Part shown: positions 3,907 through 45,003 of the stretch, piece by piece
How positions within the stretch are numbered: position 1 is the first letter of the stretch
Layout: each line of letters starts with the position of its first letter
Assembly (NCBI GenBank): GCA_017463185.1
Contig: JAFTPS010000003.1
Coordinates: forward strand, 27,113 to 91,112
DNA from: Alphaproteobacteria bacterium
GTDB taxonomy: Bacteria; Pseudomonadota; Alphaproteobacteria; Rs-D84
Length of the DNA: 64,000 nt
Direction: 5' to 3'
Translations under genes and position numbers: made by a program
The notes under the pieces: generated by a model
Told to the model about the DNA's origin: nothing
The model's database searches: none
The model's input: the letters and a program-made list of their open reading frames with translations, nothing else

Positions 3907-3983
3907 GCACCCGTGGCTTAACTGGATAGAGCATCGCCCTCCGAAGGCGGGGATTGCGCGTTCGAATCGCGCCGGGTGCGCCA
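3907..3983 (+). tRNA. tRNA-Arg (anticodon CCG)
   Basis: 77 nt cloverleaf: acceptor GCACCCG/CGGGTGC, anticodon stem TCGCC/GGCGG with loop CTCCGAA, T-arm GCGCG-TTCGAAT-CGCGC, discriminator G + encoded CCA. Confidence 0.8.
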
Positions 3984-4016
3984 TACTTCGCCAAGGCTTC
4001 GTATGGCGCGGCCACA
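3984..4016. repeat. conserved tRNA 3'-flank motif (acttcgc..gcttcgtatggcgcRgccaca), second copy at 38817-38859 after tRNA-Gly
   Basis: tacttcgccaaggcttcgtatggcgcggccaca after tRNA-Arg vs cacttcgcgtctgcgacgcttcgtatggcgcagccaca after tRNA-Gly. Confidence 0.4.
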
Positions 4017-4653: not shown

Positions 4654-6379
4654 ATCGTGTCGCGAATCCATTTTCGTCGCGCGGTGGAATTTTGAATAGT
4701 TGTCCCAGTTTGTGTTGTGTGGCATTATCGTCGGGCGCATAGACTAAATTTCCAGCCGTGGGAGAAAAAGTTAATTCACCAAATACTAATTTACCGTCTT
4801 TTGTTTCATAAAAATCAACACGAACAAAATCAAACGGTTCTGCCAGTTTTTCTGTAATTTCTATTAATTCGTTTAGAAAATCTGGACGTTCTATATCTGT
4901 TGAAATAATTCCCGCTATTCCATAATCAGACTGATTAAAGTCTAAATCAGACCAGTCGCGCGATTTTGTTTTTATCCGAATGTTATTGTGGCCATCCTGA
5001 TAACAGTTTAGGACTATAAATTCAACGCGCCCACCAAAACACCACATTTTATATTCAATATCTGTGCGAATGTCCACCATTTCACGGGCAATTACACGGG
5101 GTGGAATATATCTGTATTGCATTTCACAAAATAGTTCAGAATGATTATATAATAACCATTCTTTAACGGTTTGTTTTAGTTCCTGGGGAGAGAATTTTGT
5201 TTTATCAAAAACAAGTAAGTTTTGTCCGCTGCCCGCATTATAAGTAAGGACAAAAGATTGTGGTAATTTATCCAGTATAAACTCATCGCTGTTTTTATAG
5301 GTCGCATATAATTTTGGCAAATATTTATCACCAATTTTATCACAAACATATTTACGAACGGCCAGTTTGTCCGCACATTGTATTTTTAATGGTGTAACAT
5401 CAAACATACTGGCCCATATAACTTTGTCGCGAAATGTAGTTAGTTCCTCGGTCGGTAATTTGCCGGTGCGTTCATAAAAACGGTCGCGCAACAATATTGG
5501 CAACCGGTCCGCGCCGCAATAACGAACAATTTGTTGTCGGGACAGTGTATCAGAATAAACGATTGTTTGTTTCGTTGTCTGACGTCTTTTATAACTTAGT
5601 ATTTTTATACCGCAAAAGTATATATGGCGGCGACCATTTGGACAACGTTCTTTGTAAAATATTTTCATTGGAACCTTCCTGTGTTTGGTAATTTTATCTT
5701 GATTATGTGTTGCGATATATTGTAATTCAAAATCGCCGTTTGTTCTGTGTTCGCCCGGTGTTGGATACAGTGGGATTGTTTGCACCCCATATTTCCATGC
5801 GGCATAGTTATATGATAATTGGTCGCGCTTTGAATAGTTTTTTACCATATGCCACCATAAATTTAATGTTGATATGATTTCATTATGACGACGGAACATT
5901 ATATTTGTTTCACTCAGACCGTTGTTTTCAGGATATCCGTCGCGATGTAATTTTTTCATTTCGCGATTTACTATGTTTTTATGGTCTATGTGCAGGCGTT
6001 TTATTGTTTCTGCCTCGGCATAAATACAGTTGCGTTCAGGATGCATAGGAATTGCAATTTTAGTATTGTTTGCAATTAGTTTATTCGCTATATCAAATAT
6101 ATGATTGTTCAGGATTGATACATTTCCGTCCATCCATAAACTAATATCATATTCGGGAAACAGTATATGAGCATTGATTTTGTGCCAACGTGCGTTTTTA
6201 ACATTGCCATATTTATGACGCGCCAATTGGCGCACGACATATGGTCCAACATGTCCACACCGTATTAATTCGTGATTATCGGTGAACAGCACATAATCCC
6301 ACGATGGGTCAATGTATTTGTGTGTTGGCACGCTATCGTATCCGCCGGTAATACAAGTGTAGCATACTTTTTTGGTCAT
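4652..6379 (-). CDS. two-domain polysaccharide biosynthesis protein: N-terminal DUF616-type glycosyltransferase + C-terminal TupA-like ATP-grasp
   Basis: N-term CYTCITGGYD.. typical of DUF616/capsule GT family; C-term block (..KMWCFGGRVEFIVLNCYQDGHNNIRIKTKSRDWSDLDF..) resembles TupA-like ATP-grasp (teichuronopeptide-type amidoligase); 1-nt overlap with next gene. Confidence 0.5.
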   Translation of the reverse strand: MTKKVCYTCITGGYDSVPTHKYIDPSWDYVLFTDNHELIRCGHVGPYVVRQLARHKYGNVKNARWHKINAHILFPEYDISLWMDGNVSILNNHIFDIANKLIANNTKIAIPMHPERNCIYAEAETIKRLHIDHKNIVNREMKKLHRDGYPENNGLSETNIMFRRHNEIISTLNLWWHMVKNYSKRDQLSYNYAAWKYGVQTIPLYPTPGEHRTNGDFELQYIATHNQDKITKHRKVPMKIFYKERCPNGRRHIYFCGIKILSYKRRQTTKQTIVYSDTLSRQQIVRYCGADRLPILLRDRFYERTGKLPTEELTTFRDKVIWASMFDVTPLKIQCADKLAVRKYVCDKIGDKYLPKLYATYKNSDEFILDKLPQSFVLTYNAGSGQNLLVFDKTKFSPQELKQTVKEWLLYNHSELFCEMQYRYIPPRVIAREMVDIRTDIEYKMWCFGGRVEFIVLNCYQDGHNNIRIKTKSRDWSDLDFNQSDYGIAGIISTDIERPDFLNELIEITEKLAEPFDFVRVDFYETKDGKLVFGELTFSPTAGNLVYAPDDNATQHKLGQLFKIPPRDENGFATR

Positions 6380-8674: not shown

Positions 8675-9089
8675 TTTGCCTTTCCTTTGTATTATAAAAA
8701 ATTAAATGCCGGGTTTTCTGGTGCCAGGTCCCCGGCCGACCCCGCAATCGCTAAAGCGAATGTGGTCAACAATTGCCAACCATATTCAAAGCCATATTAG
8801 GCAGCCATTGCAAGGCGAACATTGTCGTTCGCAGCGATTCTATCGCCATTCAGTTTTTAGTTAGTGTTTTACGACAACCATGTCGGATTCAATCTTTTGC
8901 CTTTATTTCGCCTGTCGAATCTATGTCAGCCCCATTTGCAAATATGACATCAATCATATCAGTAAATGGTGGAGCTGTGGGGTACCGCCCCCCAGTCCAA
9001 AACGATTATTCCACAAAGACTTCAGAATCATCACCGTTTACACGGCCGTATTATTATAGGCTTTTGGACTGGAAATTGCAAGTTTTTAA

Positions 9090-26354: not shown

Positions 26355-26502
26355 TCGTCATTCGTCACTCGTCATTCGTATCTTTGTCATTGCGAGCGAA
26401 TGCGCCTGCCACACGAAGCTTTAGCGTAGTGTGGTGGCAATCCAGTAAATAGAATCATTATTATTTATAATTTTTCGTCAGAAAAATTGTCATTCCTGCG
26501 TA

Positions 26503-37323: not shown

Positions 37324-37352
37324 AAATCCCACCATTTGGTGGGATTTTTTCT
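37324..37352. terminator. bidirectional intrinsic terminator
   Basis: aaaaatcccaccatttggtgggatttttt. Confidence 0.65.
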
Positions 37353-38604
37353 AATACCAGCCACGTAATTTCATTGCGGTGGCTACGCGTTTTATAGAGT
37401 GCATATAGGCAGCTTCACGCATAGAAACATTGTATTCACATTTGATTTTATAAATGGCATCAAACGCGTCACGCATTGCACGGTCTTCTTTGGTGGCTAC
37501 CTCGGCCTCGTCCCAGTAATAGCCATAACGATTCTGGACCCATTCAAAATACGAAACCGTGACCCCGCCCGCATTTGCCAAAATATCTGGCACAATGGTG
37601 ACGCCACGTTCGCTTAGTATTTTTTCACCGTCCAGTGTTGTTGGACCGTTTGCCCCCTCTACCACCAGATTGGTTTTAATCAATGGCGCAGTATCTTTGT
37701 TGATTGTGTTTTCCATAGCGCACGGACACAATACATCTACATCCAATCCCCAGAACTGGTCCGTGGTAATTTCTGTTGCGGATGGATATCCTTTGATACT
37801 GCCACCGTTTTCTGATTTAAATTTCATCAACGCGTCAATATCCAGGCCATTTTCATTATAAATTGTCGTATTCCATTCGGCAATGGCGACTATTTTTGCG
37901 CCCATATCGGCGGAACATTTTGCGGTGAATGAACCGACATTTCCAAATCCCTGGATTGCGATTTTTGCACCACGCATTTCTTTGCCCATCGTTTTCAGGG
38001 ATTCGCCGATAATAATTGAAATCCCCAGCCCGGTTGCCGGTGTGCGCCCCTGGGACCCCATAAGTTCAACGGGTTTGCCGGTAAAGGTTCCAAATGACTG
38101 TTCGCCAGACAATTTGATGTATTCATCAATAAACCATGCCATAATTTGACCGTTGGTATTTACGTCTGGGGCGGGAACATCCATCTTTTCGCCCAGGATT
38201 GGATAAATCGCATCAACATAACCACGGCACAGGCGTTCTAATTCGCCAGCAGACAAGGTCTTGGGGTCAACGATAATGCCGCCTTTGCCCCCGCCATATG
38301 GGATGCCGGTGACGGCGCATTTGAATGTCATCCAAATAGATAGGGCTGCAACCTCGTCCCGCGATACCATTGGATGGAAACGCACACCACCCTTAGATGG
38401 ACCAATCGCGGTGTTATGCTGGGCGCGAAAGCCCGTAAACACACGGACCGAGCCATCATCCATTTTTACAGGGATGGAAACTTCCAGCATTCTTTGCGGA
38501 TTTTTCAAAATTTCATACACATCGTTTGGCAGCCCCAATCGCTCGCATGCAACCTTTACGCGACTTTGCGCACCAATCAATGGATTTAAGTTTTCATTTG
38601 TCAT
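37351..38604 (-). CDS. gdhA: NAD(P)-dependent glutamate dehydrogenase
   Basis: ..GPSKGGVRFHPMVSRDEV..IPYGGGKGG.. GDH signature; start MTNENLNPL at 38604 with RBS aaggaag (track ORF extends spuriously upstream). Confidence 0.9.
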   Translation of the reverse strand: MTNENLNPLIGAQSRVKVACERLGLPNDVYEILKNPQRMLEVSIPVKMDDGSVRVFTGFRAQHNTAIGPSKGGVRFHPMVSRDEVAALSIWMTFKCAVTGIPYGGGKGGIIVDPKTLSAGELERLCRGYVDAIYPILGEKMDVPAPDVNTNGQIMAWFIDEYIKLSGEQSFGTFTGKPVELMGSQGRTPATGLGISIIIGESLKTMGKEMRGAKIAIQGFGNVGSFTAKCSADMGAKIVAIAEWNTTIYNENGLDIDALMKFKSENGGSIKGYPSATEITTDQFWGLDVDVLCPCAMENTINKDTAPLIKTNLVVEGANGPTTLDGEKILSERGVTIVPDILANAGGVTVSYFEWVQNRYGYYWDEAEVATKEDRAMRDAFDAIYKIKCEYNVSMREAAYMHSIKRVATAMKLRGWY

Positions 38605-38742
38605 AATGTTTTCTTCCTTTTGATATTGGACACTGTTCAATGTACGACCATACGATATAAAAAGCAAGGGGTGGGAAAATAAAAAAGTTTTGTTCTGGAC
38701 AAGTGTGTCAAATTATTATAAAATCACGCCCATATAAGTTCC

Positions 38743-38816
38743 GCGGGCGTGGTATAATGGCAGAACGAAAGCTTCCCAAGCTTTAGACGAGGGTTCGATT
38801 CCCTTCGCCCGCACCA
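38743..38816 (+). tRNA. tRNA-Gly (anticodon CCC)
   Basis: GCGGGCG...CGCCCGC acceptor, anticodon stem AAAGC/GCTTT with loop TTCCCAA, T-loop GGTTCGATTCC, CCA encoded. Confidence 0.8.
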
Positions 38817-38835
38817 CACTTCGCGTCTGCGACGC
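38817..38835. repeat. palindromic direct repeat cacttcgcgtctgcgacgc (left flank of GIY-YIG gene)
   Basis: Repeated at 39168-39185 (cactcgcgtctgcgacgc); core gcgtc-tgc-gacgc is self-complementary. Confidence 0.55.
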
Positions 38836-38916
38836 TTCGTATGGCGCAGCCACAGGGAAAGCTGAGCAGAAACGAGAAGTAGTGCCCTGCGAAGCCTTTG
38901 GCGAAGGGGGGCATAA

Positions 38917-39165
38917 ATGTATTATGTATATTTGATTCAAAGTAAAAACTTTCCAAATCAACGTTATATAGGTTATACAGAAGATTTGAAACAACGACTA
39001 AAAGAACATAATGCAGGAATGTCAACACATACTAAAAAATATGCTCCATGGGACCTGATAACATATGTCGCTTTTTCAAACAAATATGCAGCATTAGATT
39101 TTGAAACTTATTTGAATAAAGGTTCAGGACACGCGTTTGCCAACAAACGTTTATGGACGAAATGA
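38917..39165 (+). CDS. GIY-YIG nuclease superfamily protein (YhbQ/UPF0213-like)
   Basis: MYYVYLIQSKNFPNQRYIGYTEDLKQRLKEHN = canonical GIY-YIG motif; 82 aa. Confidence 0.7.
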   Translation: MYYVYLIQSKNFPNQRYIGYTEDLKQRLKEHNAGMSTHTKKYAPWDLITYVAFSNKYAALDFETYLNKGSGHAFANKRLWTK

Positions 39166-39167
39166 TG

Positions 39168-39185
39168 CACTCGCGTCTGCGACGC
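39168..39185. repeat. second copy of palindromic direct repeat flanking GIY-YIG gene
   Basis: cactcgcgtctgcgacgc; followed by terminator aaacgcccaaacgggcgttttt. Confidence 0.55.
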
Positions 39186-39220
39186 AGCGCAAATACGAAA
39201 CGCCCAAACGGGCGTTTTTG

Positions 39221-39754
39221 TTATATTGTATGCTCGGATTTGGTCTTTGCCATTTGTACGGTTGGCGAAACATCCGATGGCGCGGCCATTTGTGCAACCT
39301 TAGACTGGGCCATTTCCCATTTGCGACGTGGCTCGCCAATAATTTTGTCATAAAATGCATCAACGATAAAATCAAATGCCGGGATGTCTGTTGGTAATTT
39401 TATCGGGGCGATATTGCGCGGGTCGCTGCCACGAATAGCTTTGTCAAACTGACCCTCGGTCAATTGCGCACCATATTCAAAAATCTCACATAATGGGCCG
39501 GCAACATCTGGTCCAACTTCCATACTTTCAAATCCCATTATATTATAGATACGGGCACCCGCCCCTTTTCCATTGTTATAGAAAACTATTTTAGATAATC
39601 CAGACTGTACACGGTAATATGCGCCCTCAGGTTCGTCTGCAACGCGCCGGTCATTTTTATCAATTCGCTCGCCAATTTTTACGATTGCGCGTTTTGATGT
39701 TTCCTGTTTGCGCAACAGCTTCTGTAATTCGTATATTTTATCTATATTTGCCAT
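39221..39754 (-). CDS. hypothetical protein
   Basis: 177-aa ORF with RBS aaagggaaa; no recognisable domain. Confidence 0.35.
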   Translation of the reverse strand: MANIDKIYELQKLLRKQETSKRAIVKIGERIDKNDRRVADEPEGAYYRVQSGLSKIVFYNNGKGAGARIYNIMGFESMEVGPDVAGPLCEIFEYGAQLTEGQFDKAIRGSDPRNIAPIKLPTDIPAFDFIVDAFYDKIIGEPRRKWEMAQSKVAQMAAPSDVSPTVQMAKTKSEHTI

Positions 39755-40069
39755 AGCATATTTCCCTTTTTATACATAATAAAACCGCCATACGGAATCT
39801 GGCGGTCGGGGAGTTGCTAAATCAGTGTATTAGTGATTCTGTCGCTTTCGGGTTGTCCCTGTTGTATAGCAAACAGCTCCCCGACTTATACAAGTCAGGG
39901 ATAAATCACGATACAAAACCATCGGAATGACATCAGATAACGATGCCATTAACAATTTTGCACCGAATACACTGGGCCTAGCACAGCCCCGAACCCATAT
40001 CCCTATGGATTCAATTCATAGTTTATCACTAAATTTCAGAAATGTAAATTGAATATATTGTTTGATGTT

Positions 40070-41155
40070 TTACTCAAACACGCTTTTGACATCTGTCATT
40101 ATATCACCGGCGCGTTTGTCGGATATGCCGACACGATGTGCGACCGCCAACATATCGGCACCTGTGATGTCTATGCCTTTGCCATTTACAGATGTTGTGT
40201 GTTCCCAAATTCCAGGTGTTCGGGTTAAGTCAAAGACAGGGGAAACATGCCAATCACCGTCATCATATAAAAATGCAAAATTTTTGGTGTGGTCATCGGT
40301 ATTGTTTATCCAAATGTTAAACACCATAAGGCGGAACATTTTTTCAACTTCAACCATATTACGGGTTAATTTCGCAGTCAAAGACAATAAATCAGAATAA
40401 TCAACCACAGGTTGTGTATGGTCTGCGTCCAACAGACCTGCTGCAGAAATCATAAAGACTTTATCGCCATTTGGTTTGCGGTCAAAACGCCGAACCCCAA
40501 AGTATTTTCCATTAAACAATCTATGTTCTGGTGTATCTAGGCCCGCTTTGATTGCAGATTCCATAATATTAAATTCTTGGGCACCAATATCTATTGGGTC
40601 TGTTCGGGCAGGAAATTTGATAATCCAATCCATACCATCAACTTTGCGGAATATTTTTGGACGTGTTCCACCGGACGAGCCACCAATACGAAACAATTCT
40701 TCGGTGATTTTATCTTCTGTGGTTATTGCATTGTCTTCAATGATTTTTCTGACCTGAATTGCAATGTCGTCCAGTTCGGAATCTTTGTATTCTGCAATCA
40801 TTTCAGCAGCAGGTTCAAATTCCAATGCCCCAGGCCCATTTTTACCAACGATTGCCAATCTGTCCAATACAGAAATGCTGTTCGGTGCAATTCCACGCCG
40901 CTGTAATTCACGATTTACCAATAATTGTCCCCAACTGTCTGGCAAAGAATCATTAAAAACACCAAACACACCGTCAAATGGATTGCGATTTGCAATAAAT
41001 ACGCGCTTTTCCAATGGTAATTTAAATGGTGATATACTAAAACCATTTTCCAGCCAACCTGCGTCATATTCAAATGCCATAAGGTTATCAGGGGTCAATG
41101 CCAAACGCCCAACCACCATGTCATGATATTTAACCGTCAGAATTTTATTTTGCAT
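40070..41155 (-). CDS. hipA: HipA-family serine/threonine kinase toxin
   Basis: HipA N-domain (..FDGVFGVFNDSLPDSWG..), catalytic NTDDHTKNFAF motif; start MQNKIL at 41155 overlaps hipB stop by 11 nt. Confidence 0.8.
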   Translation of the reverse strand: MQNKILTVKYHDMVVGRLALTPDNLMAFEYDAGWLENGFSISPFKLPLEKRVFIANRNPFDGVFGVFNDSLPDSWGQLLVNRELQRRGIAPNSISVLDRLAIVGKNGPGALEFEPAAEMIAEYKDSELDDIAIQVRKIIEDNAITTEDKITEELFRIGGSSGGTRPKIFRKVDGMDWIIKFPARTDPIDIGAQEFNIMESAIKAGLDTPEHRLFNGKYFGVRRFDRKPNGDKVFMISAAGLLDADHTQPVVDYSDLLSLTAKLTRNMVEVEKMFRLMVFNIWINNTDDHTKNFAFLYDDGDWHVSPVFDLTRTPGIWEHTTSVNGKGIDITGADMLAVAHRVGISDKRAGDIMTDVKSVFE

Positions 41156-41426
41156 GTTCGCCACCGTCCCGTACAACATCAAATATAGACTGATAATTTT
41201 TACGCACAAACAGGTTGTCAAAATCGCCTTCGTATCCCAGCGCCTGCGATAACTTAATCAGTGCAGTTAATGATATTTCCCCGGTTCGTTCAAATCGCTT
41301 GATTGAGCCCAAAGATACCCCAGAACGCTGGACCAATGTCATTTGCGACATCTTGGCGGTGCGTCGAACGGTACGGAACCTGTCTTTTATTCTGGTTTTG
41401 ATAGATAATATATTATCTATATTCAT
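41145..41426 (-). CDS. hipB: HTH XRE-family antitoxin HipB
   Basis: 93-aa Cro/C1-type HTH (..MSQMTLVQRSGVSLGSIKRFERTGE..) immediately upstream of and overlapping hipA. Confidence 0.65.
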   Translation of the reverse strand: MNIDNILSIKTRIKDRFRTVRRTAKMSQMTLVQRSGVSLGSIKRFERTGEISLTALIKLSQALGYEGDFDNLFVRKNYQSIFDVVRDGGEHAK

Positions 41427-41638
41427 TGTTTGTGCCTGTGTTTAGATATTATATTGTCTATAATTATAATGCAGCGTTGTAGATTTTGCAATAAAAAATC
41501 ATACAAAATCGTTTACAAACGACGGAAAACACGATAAATTATAAAAGCGCCAAGCAAAGTGTCAGGCAAACTGATAAAAACTGCTGAAAATCGGGTTGAA
41601 ATGGGCAGAAAAATGCCAAAAATGGCGTAAACACAGTC

Positions 41639-41654
41639 CCCTTCGCCCGCACCA
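41639..41654 (+). repeat. 16-nt duplicate of tRNA-Gly 3' end (cccttcgcccgcacca): candidate attR of tRNA-Gly islet
   Basis: Identical to 38801-38816; 2.8 kb downstream of the tRNA. Confidence 0.5.
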
Positions 41655-41751
41655 AAAATAGAGCCGACCATTGTGGTCGGATTTATTTTTGGGTTGCCTC
41701 AACAAAAATATCCCCGAACGAGTCGCGCCAGCAGCGGGACGGTTTGGATTT

Positions 41752-43092
41752 TTAAAACTTTTGACGCATAGTAAATTCTGCGCTGAATTTATCAAATTCA
41801 CGTTGCCAAATGTTTGAATCGCGATGCGTGTATCCCAATACTATCGTTGGAACAAATCCCCAAATATCAAATTTGTTATTAGACAAAGATACAGAATAGC
41901 GCTGGGTAAAATCGTGTTCTGTTATTTGTGAAAAACGACCATTATGCACAACCCATTTGTCGTCATCGTATGCTGTCCAATAAAAGTATGGTTCGGCATA
42001 TATGTGAAAACCAAAGGGTAATTCCACCCCCAGTCCAACACCAAATCCAGGTTGCCAATATGAATATTCGGGGGCATTTGCAGATTCGCGTAATACACCA
42101 ACGCGCGCCGCGGCATACAATCGCGCATTAAATGAATAAGAAAATCTCAATTGCGATGAATATGTATTACCAGTCAGGAAATCATCATATAAATCGTATG
42201 AATTATTCAAGTATTGCAAGTATAGACCACCAGATAATTTTCGGGTAAAGTCATAGTTCAAATCCAGTTTTGCACCGACCGACCAATTATATCGTTCCCA
42301 ACCATACCAACGACGATTCCAGACACCGGCCAACCAAATATCCCCACGTTTCCATATATATCGCGGGCCCGAACCAACCGACAGGTATAAATCGTCATAA
42401 TCAGAAATATCATAAATATTGCTGTATATAAACGCGTCTGATTTCCATCGCCAATGGTCGGACAGTTTGAATTCATAATTTCCACCCAATGAAAAATTAT
42501 AACCAATTGCAGATTCTGGGGCGCTTAAATCACGACACATTGGTCCAAACATTGTGTTTACACACTCGGTCCCACCAACCGCATTATTTATATTATTATC
42601 TGGTGCAGCACCAAAATTAAACCAAACATTCCAATTTTTATTTTGGCGCACAATCCACCGGTAATAGTTCATTACTTTACGCACATTATCCGGTAAATCC
42701 GCCCCCGCCATAGCCAGTCGCAAATGATAATCCGCCCGATACCATTGTTTTGTGTGCATATAACAAATTGCCAATTCAAAACGGATACGCGCCAAATCAG
42801 GCTGCTCGTCCAATATTTTATGAAATATTTTTATCGCGGTATTATAATCACCACGACGCGCCGCAATTTGCCCAAGTAAAAACCATCGTTCAATTTCCAA
42901 TGCAGGATTACCTGTTTGCGGAACGGTTATCAATATTTGTTCTGCTTTGTCGTAGTTACCAGCGTCTACAAAATTACCCGCCAACTGTATAACCTGAATT
43001 GTATCCAATTGTATGGTTTTTGTATTGTCCGTTTCTGCCCAGACAAAGCCAGGCAGAAACAACAGGCAAAGAATGATAGCCAGACGTTTCAT
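41752..43092 (-). CDS. surface lipoprotein assembly modulator (Slam, DUF560-like): signal peptide + TPR region + C-terminal beta-barrel
   Basis: Signal peptide MKRLAIILCLLFLPGFVWA, TPR-like ~150 aa, aromatic-rich alternating beta-strand region ending ..FTMRQKF (terminal Phe); 3 nt downstream of a GGSGGG-type lipoprotein gene, as in Neisseria SLP-Slam pairs. Confidence 0.6.
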   Translation of the reverse strand: MKRLAIILCLLFLPGFVWAETDNTKTIQLDTIQVIQLAGNFVDAGNYDKAEQILITVPQTGNPALEIERWFLLGQIAARRGDYNTAIKIFHKILDEQPDLARIRFELAICYMHTKQWYRADYHLRLAMAGADLPDNVRKVMNYYRWIVRQNKNWNVWFNFGAAPDNNINNAVGGTECVNTMFGPMCRDLSAPESAIGYNFSLGGNYEFKLSDHWRWKSDAFIYSNIYDISDYDDLYLSVGSGPRYIWKRGDIWLAGVWNRRWYGWERYNWSVGAKLDLNYDFTRKLSGGLYLQYLNNSYDLYDDFLTGNTYSSQLRFSYSFNARLYAAARVGVLRESANAPEYSYWQPGFGVGLGVELPFGFHIYAEPYFYWTAYDDDKWVVHNGRFSQITEHDFTQRYSVSLSNNKFDIWGFVPTIVLGYTHRDSNIWQREFDKFSAEFTMRQKF

Positions 43093-43095
43093 TGA

Positions 43096-44808
43096 TTATC
43101 TGGTTCCACCAAAGCCCAATTCAACATTTATATTACCGTCACCGCCATTGTCATTAGGACGCCAATTTCCATTATCGTTGACCCATTCCCAGTCAGAAGA
43201 ATTATCCAGGCTATAACGCATTGTTGCGGTGGCTTCAGTTGGGGTGTTATTATCCCCATAATATCCAGCAGTAAATGCCATAGTTTCAGAATCCTTGCTG
43301 ATTAGGTTGCCTTGGTTATCAAATTCAGGTACAACATTATTGTCGCTGGTCAACCCAGATGCTGATGTCACAAGTGTAAAATCATATGTTCGCAAGCTGC
43401 CATCGCCATCAACATCAAATGTTTTTGTTACACGGTCATTATCGTTTGTTTTACCATCACCATTTCTGTCACCAAAAACAACCAATTTATTTGTACCATC
43501 TGCGGATTGCACAGCTTGAATTTTATACCAATTGTCTGAAAAATCTGCGGTTAGTGTTTGGGTGCCTGTATTATCAAATACCAATGTAGCATTGGTATCG
43601 GTCATCATATCGTCTGTCAACGGCACATCAATACCATTTCCATTATATGCCAAACCATCGCGATATCTGACATCTGCAAATGCGGTTCCTGTAAATGTTA
43701 TACTGCCATCATTTGCCAATGTTTTCATATCTTCATTTGATATTTTCTTGGACGCATATCCACCAGCAAAAGGAGTAATCATAACACCCCAAGCATCCAA
43801 AAATTCTCGCACTTCCTGTTTACCTGCATCGTTCAATCCTGTTGTGGCAAACGTTGCGTTTTTAAAATCATTTTTCATGATACCAAAATCGGCATATTTC
43901 AGTCCCAGTTGTTTGCCATAACTGATATATTCGTCATACAATTCAAGATTGATGCTGCCACTAGCGTCGGTTATATTTTCTGTGGATACAATATTTGCAT
44001 CTGGATCTTCGTCGTTCATTTGACTCAAAGGAATCATACTTGCTTGGACAAAGATATTTGTATTATCCCGACGCACAATCACACCATCTGTATCATCATC
44101 AACTGGATATTCAGGCGAACCATCGTCATCATATCTCGTAAAACTGACAGAACCATCATCGTTATGAACCAGATAATCTGGATATTCATACGATACAATT
44201 TTACCATTTTTATCAACATTAAACTTGATTCTTTGCATTTGTGATGTGTATAAGTCCACACCATCCAATGTCATAATTTCTGTTCTTTGTTGCAGGTCTG
44301 CCAACGTTTTTTCAAAATTACTTTCCTTGATACGGCGTGCGGTCTCGGTTGCGTCACCACCGACAAAGCAATACATATCATCCATCAGCTTCAATGCAGA
44401 TTTAATTTTGTTTTTATCCAATTTTGATTTGTTGAACATTTCAACAATATCGCTTTCAGATGTTGTGTCTTCAACCAGCCAAGCCGCCAAATCAATCAAT
44501 TCACGCGCTGTGTCATATTCTGTATCCCCTGTTGGGGTTTTAGGCACAAACGCCCCGCGGGTTGTCGCAACACGTGATAAATTTACATCAGCCGCATAAT
44601 CACCCAATTTATGCGCAACATAACGTGCAACCTGATATTCACTGTTTGAAACCATACCTGTAATTTCTGAATTACTGGTCGCAACCGTATCAACAAATGA
44701 AGAGTTTGGAACAACTGGTTTTTCAAGCATCGCTGGGGCAGAACCACCACCTGAACCGCCACAAGCCGCCAATGCCAAAACAGAGGTTAAAAATGCAATT
44801 TTTTTCAT
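43096..44808 (-). CDS. surface lipoprotein (SLP-type; lipobox LAACGGSGGGS)
   Basis: MKKIAFLTSVLALAACGGSGGGSAP: lipobox followed by flexible Gly/Ser linker typical of Slam-dependent surface lipoproteins; 570 aa. Confidence 0.55.
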   Translation of the reverse strand: MKKIAFLTSVLALAACGGSGGGSAPAMLEKPVVPNSSFVDTVATSNSEITGMVSNSEYQVARYVAHKLGDYAADVNLSRVATTRGAFVPKTPTGDTEYDTARELIDLAAWLVEDTTSESDIVEMFNKSKLDKNKIKSALKLMDDMYCFVGGDATETARRIKESNFEKTLADLQQRTEIMTLDGVDLYTSQMQRIKFNVDKNGKIVSYEYPDYLVHNDDGSVSFTRYDDDGSPEYPVDDDTDGVIVRRDNTNIFVQASMIPLSQMNDEDPDANIVSTENITDASGSINLELYDEYISYGKQLGLKYADFGIMKNDFKNATFATTGLNDAGKQEVREFLDAWGVMITPFAGGYASKKISNEDMKTLANDGSITFTGTAFADVRYRDGLAYNGNGIDVPLTDDMMTDTNATLVFDNTGTQTLTADFSDNWYKIQAVQSADGTNKLVVFGDRNGDGKTNDNDRVTKTFDVDGDGSLRTYDFTLVTSASGLTSDNNVVPEFDNQGNLISKDSETMAFTAGYYGDNNTPTEATATMRYSLDNSSDWEWVNDNGNWRPNDNGGDGNINVELGFGGTR

Positions 44809-44940
44809 TTAATATCCTTTCTGGAATATGTTGTGAATGTTTTCACAAAGCAATAATTAAATCAACCGCTTTTGCGCATCTTACCAATGCACCAGGTCCA
44901 TAGAGAAAGAAAAAAACAAAAAACTTTACAAACAGGAAAT

Positions 44941-45003
44941 CCAAACTGCAACACCAACATAAAAATAAAACGCCCGCATGGGGCGTTTGATTTTTGTGGC
45001 GGA
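44941..45003. repeat. 63-nt direct repeat (copy A) = tRNA-Ser 3'-end (8 nt) + 3' flank incl. terminator hairpin; candidate attL
   Basis: caaactgcaacaccaacataaaaataaaacgcccgcatggggcgtttgatttttgtggcggag; 60/63 identical to 56115-56177 which ends inside tRNA-Ser. Confidence 0.6.

Follow-up and report, generated by a model that had tools for sequence, protein, structure and literature searches.

The tRNA-Gly(CCC) gene at positions 38743–38816 (+) of a 64,000-nt stretch of an alphaproteobacterial contig (JAFTPS010000003.1; the full stretch is called the window here, and positions count from its first letter) is followed, from the very next base, by a compact cassette made up of a conserved structured leader of ~100 nt (38817–38916, +) and an open reading frame (ORF) for an 82-amino-acid GIY-YIG nuclease (38917–39165, +; Pfam PF01541). 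It is well supported that 38817–39167 is one copy of a family of compact selfish cassettes, in which such a leader, fused to the CCA end of a tRNA or transfer-messenger RNA (tmRNA) gene, is combined with a nuclease gene. The tRNA gene encodes its own CCA and scores 64.3 bits against the Rfam tRNA model; a consensus scan placed a putative promoter (TGGACA-17-TAAAAT) upstream of it at 38696–38724 (+), and a terminator scan placed an intrinsic-terminator-like hairpin with a T-run downstream of the cassette at 39197–39218 (+).

The original prediction for this locus described a miniature element in which an 82-amino-acid GIY-YIG ORF lies directly after tRNA-Gly, between 18-bp direct repeats with a palindromic core, and each of these features is indeed present. 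Repeat 1 (CACTTCGCGTCTGCGACGC, 38817–38835, +; an 18/19-nt repeat) and repeat 2 (CACTCGCGTCTGCGACGC, 39168–39185, +) share an exact 15-mer, TCGCGTCTGCGACGC, that occurs at only these two places in 64 kb; the same is true of exact matches to the 13-nt palindrome GCGTCTGCGACGC, and with up to two mismatches the palindrome is matched 4 times in the window as compared to 0.81 expected. Given the two exclusive sites and the excess over expectation, the repeat is genuine and above chance. Repeat 1 is also the beginning of the leader: it contains the first hairpin of a conserved structure of ~100 nt that starts right after CCA, as delineated by an alignment of 38 leaders, covariation and a covariance model. 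From 5′ to 3′, the leader alignment defines a segment a (CACTTCGC, 38817–38824); a hairpin P2 (GCGTC-TGC-GACGC, 38823–38835), recovered by RNAalifold as well, which is the palindrome of repeat 1; a motif b (CTTCG-TA-TGG, 38835–38844); a hairpin P3 (38840–38854); a segment a′ (CGAGAAGTAGTG, 38873–38884) that pairs with a; and a hairpin P4 (38884–38912) with a GAA/GAA internal loop, which covers a purine-rich ribosome-binding site (all +). Repeat 2 is a second, partial copy of the first 19 nt of the leader, from which one base is missing.

The nuclease is small and well conserved. The window ORF matches the Pfam GIY-YIG profile over residues 1–68 with 58.3 bits (cut-off 22.6; E=9.3e-16), and has hundreds of relatives of 80 amino acids at 56–76% identity; a full-library profile search retrieved 3171 clusters at 50% identity (E<=1e-10), with lengths of 78–166 amino acids in all 150 clusters among the matches listed. 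Across 28 diverse members Y5, Y17, H31, N32 and E63 are invariant and R27 is kept in at least 90%; by analogy with solved GIY-YIG enzymes, Y5, Y17, R27, H31 and E63 correspond to the catalytic motif. The family also carries its own C-terminal motif, YLKSGSGHAFANKRLW. An AlphaFold2 model (pLDDT 91.2) forms a single compact domain, and Foldseek placed HIGLE, Slx1 and UPF0213 at the top (TM-scores 0.65–0.76, 28–36% identity), with weaker matches to the N-terminal domain of UvrC and to I-TevI further down; the nearest solved relatives by sequence are UPF0213 BH0048 (1zg2, E=3e-9) and SLX1/HIGLE (profile search, E 3e-7 to 1e-4). Judged from sequence and model, the protein is a stand-alone nuclease domain of the SLX1/HIGLE/UPF0213 type (COG2827), a bare catalytic core with predicted activity. 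Neither its Pfam coverage nor the AlphaFold2 model leaves room for a sequence-specific DNA-binding module in the 80–82 amino acids, and defence-system and NCBIfam models gave only sub-threshold matches.

We sampled loci at one genome per species, confirmed 562 among the first 600 candidates, and analysed the best 80, which span Alphaproteobacteria, Verrucomicrobia, Deltaproteobacteria, Dependentiae/TM6, Candidate Phyla Radiation bacteria, Nitrospirales, Tectomicrobia and Acidobacteria. A tRNA or tmRNA gene lies upstream of the ORF on the same strand in 69 of the 80, its 3′ end 82–381 nt (mostly ~92–115 nt) before the ORF. Counting the Gly of the window, 12 tRNA identities adjoin the element, in addition to tmRNA: cassettes follow tRNA-Ser (23), tmRNA (10), tRNA-Gln (8), tRNA-Leu (8), tRNA-Pro (6), tRNA-Ala (4), tRNA-Val (3), tRNA-Asp (2), tRNA-Arg (2), tRNA-Glu (2), tRNA-Thr (1) and tRNA-Asn (1), a total of 70 rather than 69 because one locus (L029) holds two cassettes. 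Most loci without a called tRNA are truncated by the end of their contig, or their leader is immediately preceded by a decayed piece of a tRNA 3′ end. The first base of the leader is the base that follows CCA, and the orientation is always that of the tRNA; neighbouring tRNA genes that lack the element all encode CCA too, so the position of the junction does not discriminate between models of its origin. Outside chromosomes the nuclease family is hard to find: tblastn returned 0 matches in 72,556 plasmids and 50,697 phages, and 2 matches were found in 2.9 million viral contigs. We consider it very probable that the cassettes form a family of inserted elements specific for tRNA 3′ ends. As a separate observation on taxonomy, the last 12 nt of tRNA-Leu are identical, and the leaders near-identical, in L079 (labelled Parcubacteria) and in L045 and L056 (Caulobacterales); the L079 contig may be mis-binned, and some cross-phylum labels need care.

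The leader has a constant order of parts: a variable prefix of 2–5 nt, CTTCGC (segment a), P2, GCTTCG-prefix′-TGG(C) (motif b, which opens P3), a variable stretch, a′ (GCGAAG-prefix′-TG), and P4 (GCCCTCC-GAAGC-loop-GCGAAG-GAGGGC), whose end lies a median of 13 nt upstream of the start codon. RNAalifold supported P2 and P4, with double compensatory changes in 8 of 13 pairs. Since a single MAFFT alignment of all leader classes put P1 (the pairing of a with a′) and P3 out of register, both were tested with anchored, non-circular scripts. P1 comprises 8–21 bp and can extend two pairs into the terminal CA of the tRNA; its compensated variants include CTACGC/GCGTAG, CGTCGC/GCGACG and GACTTCGC/GCGAAGTC. 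The prefix covaries as well. With motifs defined without use of complementarity, the dinucleotide that follows CCA and the variable dinucleotide of motif b are exact reverse complements in 40 of 42 leaders, as compared to a mean of 9 and a maximum of 18 in 2000 permutations, and the same relation holds for a′ in 19 of 19. Kinship among the sequences inflates these counts; nevertheless, eight independently compensated prefix types (CA, CC, GC, TC, TG, GA, AC and TT) are otherwise hard to explain. Thus the leader 5′ end, together with the terminal CA/CCA of the tRNA, can pair with two internal segments, a′ and b.

The window leader scores 68.3 bits against the covariance model R1 built for the family (E=3.5e-18), and its fold has an energy of -41 kcal/mol (z=-2.7); its single-sequence minimum-energy structure holds P1, P3 and P4, not P2. 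GGAGG or AGGAG lies on the 3′ strand of P4 in 28 of 52 ORF-carrying copies, where the hairpin is able to mask the ribosome-binding site. No Rfam family matched the window leader at gathering thresholds or at E<=10, nor 10 further leaders at E<=5. Sensing of the tRNA discriminator base in the manner of a T-box was considered and rejected, motif b being TGGC next to both ACCA and GCCA tRNA ends. Two departures from the usual layout were seen: leaders of L069, L080, L083, L085 and L087 are permuted, with the b/P3 module 3′ of P4 instead of in the P1 loop and the prefix complement still carried, and leaders of 176–245 nt in L016, L021, L034, L035 and L081 contain a tandem duplication of all or part of the leader with a single ORF downstream.

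Whether the orthologous tRNA-Gly flank occurs without the cassette in relatives, a check put forward in the original prediction, was addressed through homologues of the left neighbour GDH (82–88% identity) that retain the divergent tRNA-Gly(CCC)/GDH pair; GDH was chosen because the right neighbour, a 177-amino-acid protein, is nearly an orphan. Three relatives (L088, L089 and L090) have an empty site, in which CCA is followed by a short trailer and a terminator, with neither the cassette nor the 18-mer. A fourth, L094, has the cassette in identical flanks and the same gene order as L090 and L091 (PFK, LysM, radical-SAM, tRNA-Gly, GDH, S16, RimM, TrmD, L19): its copy reads CCA|CACTTCGCGTCAGAGACGC...ATG...TGGAAATAA|AACCCGG and runs into the terminator 2 nt past the stop codon. 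What remains in L091, which is very close to L094, is 15 nt from the leader 5′ end and a stretch of ~13 nt similar to the last part of the ORF, both behind a second copy of the tRNA's last 18 nt and ~190 nt from the intact tRNA. The empty, filled and decayed sites together establish that the cassette is gained or lost among close relatives, and that its borders are, to within a few bases, CCA on the left and the stop codon on the right; short solo pieces of the leader 5′ end are decay products. The notion of a small, selfish-looking inserted cassette with a GIY-YIG gene is thereby borne out.

Duplications of tRNA 3′ ends, searched for as a general signature, were found at 3 of 72 loci and neither in the window nor in L094; together with the lack of an integrase, this led us to reject a tRNA-targeting integrative element. 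As individual cases, tRNA-end copies of 14–18 nt occur in L091 (2590–2800), L098 (3677–3870), L062 (2565–2870), L034 (3290–3340) and L013 (~1400). The first three have an insert of 100–210 nt between the intact tRNA and the second tRNA-end copy plus leader; L034 and L013 instead have the tRNA-end copy ~50 nt 3′ of the ORF, with the cassette bracketed in between. A near-identical trailer and terminator, AAAATCAAAyCGGCCwTGTGCCGrTTTTATTTTTGG, is shared by L091 (2755–2792, tRNA-Gly) and L034 (3311–3346, a tRNA-Gln 3′ fragment), a sequence match that suggests that this piece, too, may move or recombine between tRNA loci.

Repeat 2 has counterparts elsewhere. A partial leader copy lies 3′ of the ORF in 10 of 70 loci (about 15%), usually starting 0–17 nt past the stop codon; in most cases these copies begin at leader position 0–12, and they keep anything from 18 nt to a whole tandem copy. 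Remnants comparable to repeat 2 were found in L091, L009, L014, L047, L052, L073 and L083. L073 and L083 contain tandem arrays whose tRNA-proximal copy is intact and whose distal copy breaks off 26–37 codons into the ORF; in L029 the ORF of the first cassette is the degenerate one, after ~34 residues. Repeat 2 fits as the shortest case in this series, and from its sequence it is most likely a leftover 5′ end, from an earlier or an ORF-less copy that lost its place next to the tRNA, rather than a terminus of the element. The sequence of repeat 1, in turn, recurs unchanged after tRNA-Gln in L022, L025 and L032 and after tRNA-Leu in L166, and with 2 differences in L008; the occurrence of repeat 1 at other tRNAs in other organisms marks it as element sequence and not as a duplicated target.

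Leaders also occur without the gene. Within the window, an ORF-less fragment (TACTTCGCCAAGGCTTCGTATGGCGCGGCCACA, 3984–4016, +; a, b and P3 only) directly follows the CCA of tRNA-Arg(CCG) (3907–3983; R1 E=4.8e-6). Its TA prefix matches its own motif b (TA-TGG). The tRNA-Gly cassette has an identical motif b, which there is mismatched to a CA prefix. The covariance model R1 also picked up an orphan a′/P4-like remnant at 26392–26438 (+), GCGAGCGAATG...GCCACACGAAGCTTTAGCGTAGTGTGG, which lies 3′ of a terminator with no adjoining tRNA; its 27-nt stretch GCCACACGAAGCTTTAGCGTAGTGTGG recurs without change in the P4 region of the L166 cassette, at a tRNA-Leu in a metagenome. GTCATT-type short repeats and a second hairpin, GTCATTCCTGCGTAGGCGGTAATGAC, lie near this remnant.

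A survey of ORF-less copies by a leader-first pattern search of metagenome contigs, which covers one sequence pattern and one leader subclass, gave 82 matches. CCA plus 2 nt precedes 43 of these, and 33 of the 43 lie directly 3′ of a called tRNA or tmRNA, of 13 kinds. The prefix is complementary to motif b in 34 of the 43 CCA-preceded copies as compared to 5 of the 39 other matches. A GIY-YIG ORF lies within 900 nt in 8 of the 43 and is lacking from 35; in this sample, ORF-less copies exceed ORF-carrying ones about 4:1. Complete ORF-less elements sit between the tRNAs of tRNA clusters (L106, L112, L131 and L154) and after tRNA-Ile and tRNA-Ala in 16S-23S spacers (L146, at 5472–5590 and 5661–5760; L161; L180). 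The original prediction had named a tRNA-trailer element that exists without the nuclease gene, in relatives and elsewhere, as the finding that would speak against it. Elsewhere such trailers do exist, as in the 35 ORF-less copies and the tRNA-Arg fragment of the window, whereas the orthologous tRNA-Gly of the closest relatives is simply empty.

How should a leader, a nuclease gene and a tRNA end be put together? The original prediction viewed the cassette as a mini-element ending in its 18-bp hairpin direct repeats, produced by target duplication or by hairpin-directed recombination of the kind known from IS200/IS605 elements and integron cassettes. The exact 15-mer on both sides of the ORF, the solo 15-nt copy in L091, which resembles an excision footprint, and a guide-like leader segment complementary to its own junction, formally as in the pairing of guide and cleavage site in IS608, would all fit. 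We nevertheless regard this reading as very improbable: the L094 cassette sits in the same flanks without a second repeat, the downstream copy differs between loci in its start and in its length (18 nt to a full tandem), other tRNAs carry repeat 1 as conserved element sequence, the cassette has neither a Y1 (HUH-type) transposase nor an integrase, and its left boundary is CCA rather than a repeat. For three of these reasons, the identity of repeat 1 at other tRNAs, the varying downstream copies and the lack of a flanking repeat in L094, a transposon with target-site duplications was rejected, and the repeats cannot be retained as element ends. An alternative with a better claim, although still an unlikely one in our estimation, is that the leader-only element, selfish or useful, is primary and the GIY-YIG ORF a passenger, akin to a homing endonuclease, which would cut ORF-less leaders and be copied in directly 3′ of P4, in the way that homing genes have colonised group I introns. 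ORF-less leaders outnumber the others about 4:1, and those in tRNA clusters and rRNA spacers are complete (P1–P4); the ORF start is always close behind P4 (median 13 nt); the partial leader copies around the ORF in about 15% of loci would provide homology on both sides; and P4 is maintained in ORF-less copies that have no ribosome-binding site. On the other hand, many phyla have leader and ORF in combination, with matching leader subtypes; no DNA-binding domain with which to target leaders can be recognised in the protein; the leader's own arrival at tRNA ends is left unexplained; and the ORF-less sample derives from one pattern and one leader subclass.

Two further readings were considered. 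If the leader were a beneficial module for tRNA 3′-trailer processing or stability, and the nuclease a DNA-repair gene (COG2827) that makes use of tRNA promoters, the cassette would be an immobile host function. The host-like composition of the ORF, the absence of the family from plasmids and phages, and the evident tolerance of leader-only copies in rRNA and tRNA operons are consistent with this, as is one Caulobacter COG2827 gene reported with an SOS box (PMC1839093). Presence and absence vary, however, among close relatives at one orthologous site; a different tRNA is occupied in nearly every lineage; tandem copies, truncated pseudogenes and scattered fragments occur; and the same leader subtype is found in different phyla, all of which make a purely host function very unlikely. 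The other reading, which we consider scarcely probable, holds that the leader acts as a small ribozyme, or as a signal for processing, with cleavage at, or joining to, the mature tRNA 3′-OH, and that copies arise through an RNA intermediate. It would account for a junction exactly after CCA, and it is in keeping with a junction that coincides with the mature 3′ end whatever the tRNA identity, and in tmRNA too, with an orientation that is strictly that of the tRNA, with the mismatches in P4 (8 G-U vs 3 A-C), and with structure from the element's first base, as in the hepatitis delta virus (HDV)-like ribozymes at the 5′ ends of R2 elements. Yet there is no reverse transcriptase, 11 leaders match no Rfam ribozyme family even at permissive thresholds, the CCA encoded by all neighbouring tRNA genes makes the junction uninformative, and P1 spans the proposed cleavage site, unlike the structure of HDV-like ribozymes.

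We favour a selfish cassette of leader and nuclease gene, and hold the full account, including expression and spread, to be somewhat more probable than not. The only terminator-like site between the tRNA promoter and the convergent gene for the 177-amino-acid protein is the one at 39197–39218, 3′ of repeat 2; since the cassette thus lies between the tRNA and its terminator, transcription would start at the putative tRNA promoter. The junction pairing, of a′ and b with the prefix and CA/CCA, may mark the precise point of cleavage so that the tRNA stays functional, and P4, by covering the ribosome-binding site, would keep translation of the nuclease low. SLX1-type relatives of the nuclease cut branched and hairpin DNA. 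A structure-specific nuclease of this type could introduce breaks where tRNA 3′ ends form hairpins or branches, or in leader copies already in place; repair would then copy the element in, as in homing, with partial leader duplications left behind as scars, and leader-only copies could be mobilised in trans.

Several points weigh against this account. The sole ORF of the cassette is the GIY-YIG gene, with no enzyme that joins DNA (integrase, transposase or reverse transcriptase), and GIY-YIG nucleases are not known to do more than cut; the joining of DNA exactly after CCA at any tRNA is unexplained, and a catalytic domain of 80 amino acids has no obvious way to recognise sequence. L094, when compared to the empty sites, shows no flanking duplication and no second repeat. 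The two exceptions to prefix covariation are the window and L094 themselves, with one mismatch of motif b to the prefix (TA instead of TG). P4 is retained in ORF-less copies that lack a ribosome-binding site, so masking of that site cannot be its sole role, and the mismatch counts (G-U vs A-C: 8 vs 3 in P4, 2 vs 3 in P1) leave it unsettled whether P1 acts as RNA or as DNA. The taxonomy of metagenome bins may be wrong for some loci. Finally, an ORF whose G+C content tracks the host rather than the leader, and the absence of the family from plasmids and phages and near-absence from viral contigs, fit long residence and mostly vertical descent, not frequent transfer. A more daring version of the favoured account, which we put forward only tentatively and hold to be unlikely, is that the leader is a nucleic-acid guide: b and a′ would pair with CCA and the first bases of the element and define the point of cutting or joining at any tRNA-like 3′ end, and the SLX1-like nuclease, itself devoid of a DNA-binding domain, would act on the branched or hairpin structure that results.

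The protein resembles the SLX1/HIGLE/UPF0213 group (YhbQ and BH0048; COG2827) in sequence, fold and the positions of the Tyr, Tyr, Arg, His and Glu residues. Unlike the SLX1 branch, it consists of a core of ~80 amino acids only, with no RING/PHD domain or SLX4-type partner and with the motif YLKSGSGHAFANKRLW; it also differs from that branch as reported in being tied to a structured leader and tRNA 3′ ends, a link of which we found no report in the literature. A 2007 study of Caulobacter listed three small COG2827 genes, one with an SOS box, and made no connection to tRNA genes (PMC1839093). Free-standing GIY-YIG genes of phages, such as the T4 Seg genes, among them SegB in a tRNA cluster, are small selfish nuclease genes that lie between genes and by tRNA genes, with spread presumed to be break-induced (PMC13096335, PMC2988022). 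The cassettes are likewise small, selfish nuclease genes located between genes and adjoining tRNA genes; unlike Seg genes, however, they are chromosomal and absent from phage records, have a CCA-fused leader and abundant ORF-less derivatives, and encode no DNA-binding domain. Seg proteins and I-TevI exceed 200 amino acids and have DNA-binding domains.

Genomic islands and prophages with tyrosine integrases also target tRNA and tmRNA 3′ ends, and the occasional tRNA-end duplications of 14–18 nt (L034, L062, L091 and L098) recall them. The elements described here differ in having no integrase, a size of ~100–350 bp, a junction after CCA rather than inside the gene, any tRNA identity with no fixed attachment sequence, and a clean pair of filled and empty sites without duplication. 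Similarly, IS200/IS605 elements share with the cassette a subterminal hairpin (here P3) preceded by a segment complementary to CCA and the prefix, and insertion 3′ of a fixed short sequence without target duplication; but the cassette has neither a Y1/HUH TnpA nor TnpB, and a bare CCA cannot account for its restriction to tRNA ends. The left end of the element has the guide-like junction pairing and a hairpin, the right end no conserved structure, just the stop codon. No covalent DNA intermediates are known for GIY-YIG enzymes. An integron gene cassette would have a conserved 3′ (attC) site and an integrase nearby, both of which are lacking. Many short structured non-coding copies beside fewer coding ones recall miniature inverted-repeat transposable elements (MITEs) or repetitive extragenic palindromes with their autonomous partners, such as tyrosine transposases; here, by contrast, the copies are fixed at tRNA 3′ ends in one orientation rather than dispersed between genes, and the partner is a GIY-YIG nuclease rather than a transposase. 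R2 elements, which are transcribed along with a host RNA gene and freed by an HDV-like ribozyme at their 5′ end, and group I introns with homing genes, finally, also combine a highly transcribed stable-RNA unit, RNA structure from the first base and a nuclease gene downstream; the cassette, though, has no reverse transcriptase and no match to a ribozyme or intron family, and lies 3′ of the RNA gene, not inside it. In sum, the family resembles a free-standing homing gene, or a MITE with an autonomous partner, yet fails the defining features of each. What emerges is a tRNA-tail element of wide distribution in which an SLX1-like nuclease gene is optional, and of which we found no earlier description; our literature search, outside of which subscription-only papers fell, returned no account of tRNA-linked GIY-YIG cassettes or of this trailer element.

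If the guide reading were true, the family would form a new class of mobile elements at tRNA 3′ ends that have no transposase, integrase or reverse transcriptase, with leader-only copies as their non-autonomous partners. A single element family would account for thousands of genes annotated as "GIY-YIG nuclease family protein" and for numerous short trailers of tRNAs in Alphaproteobacteria, Verrucomicrobia, Deltaproteobacteria, Dependentiae and further phyla. The ends of tRNA and tmRNA genes are classic hot spots of integrase-bearing islands; a unit of 100–350 bp at the same address with no integrase points to a different mode of recognition or exploitation. ORF-less copies in rRNA spacers and tRNA operons bear on annotation, on spacer-length variation and on the detection of genomic islands, and the covariation and junction-spanning pairing make the leader open to direct work on tRNA 3′ processing, translational masking and a minimal SLX1-like nuclease.

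The remaining features concern composition and surroundings. The window has a G+C content of ~44%, as compared to ~55% in the leader and ~33–38% over the ORF (38900–39199); the coding sequence seems to have approached the base composition of the host, and the leader to have remained rich in G+C. An Rfam search of the window also identified a permuted, alpha-type tmRNA at 8707–9085, in keeping with its alphaproteobacterial origin. A weak, sub-threshold Rfam match to STnc350 at 39165–39225 (E=0.013; 26 bits, where the gathering score is 60) takes in repeat 2 as well as the terminator, and is probably driven by the terminator hairpin. The right flank of the window contains the orphan gene for the 177-amino-acid protein, a gene for a HipA-like toxin and its small partner, and a SLAM-like, TPR-containing gene, which together take the place of rpsP-rimM-trmD-rplS. 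When compared to all relatives examined (L088–L094), the GDH/tRNA-Gly block (~37351–45000) is inverted relative to the LysM and radical-SAM genes, and one breakpoint of the inverted block coincides with the cassette and repeat 2.

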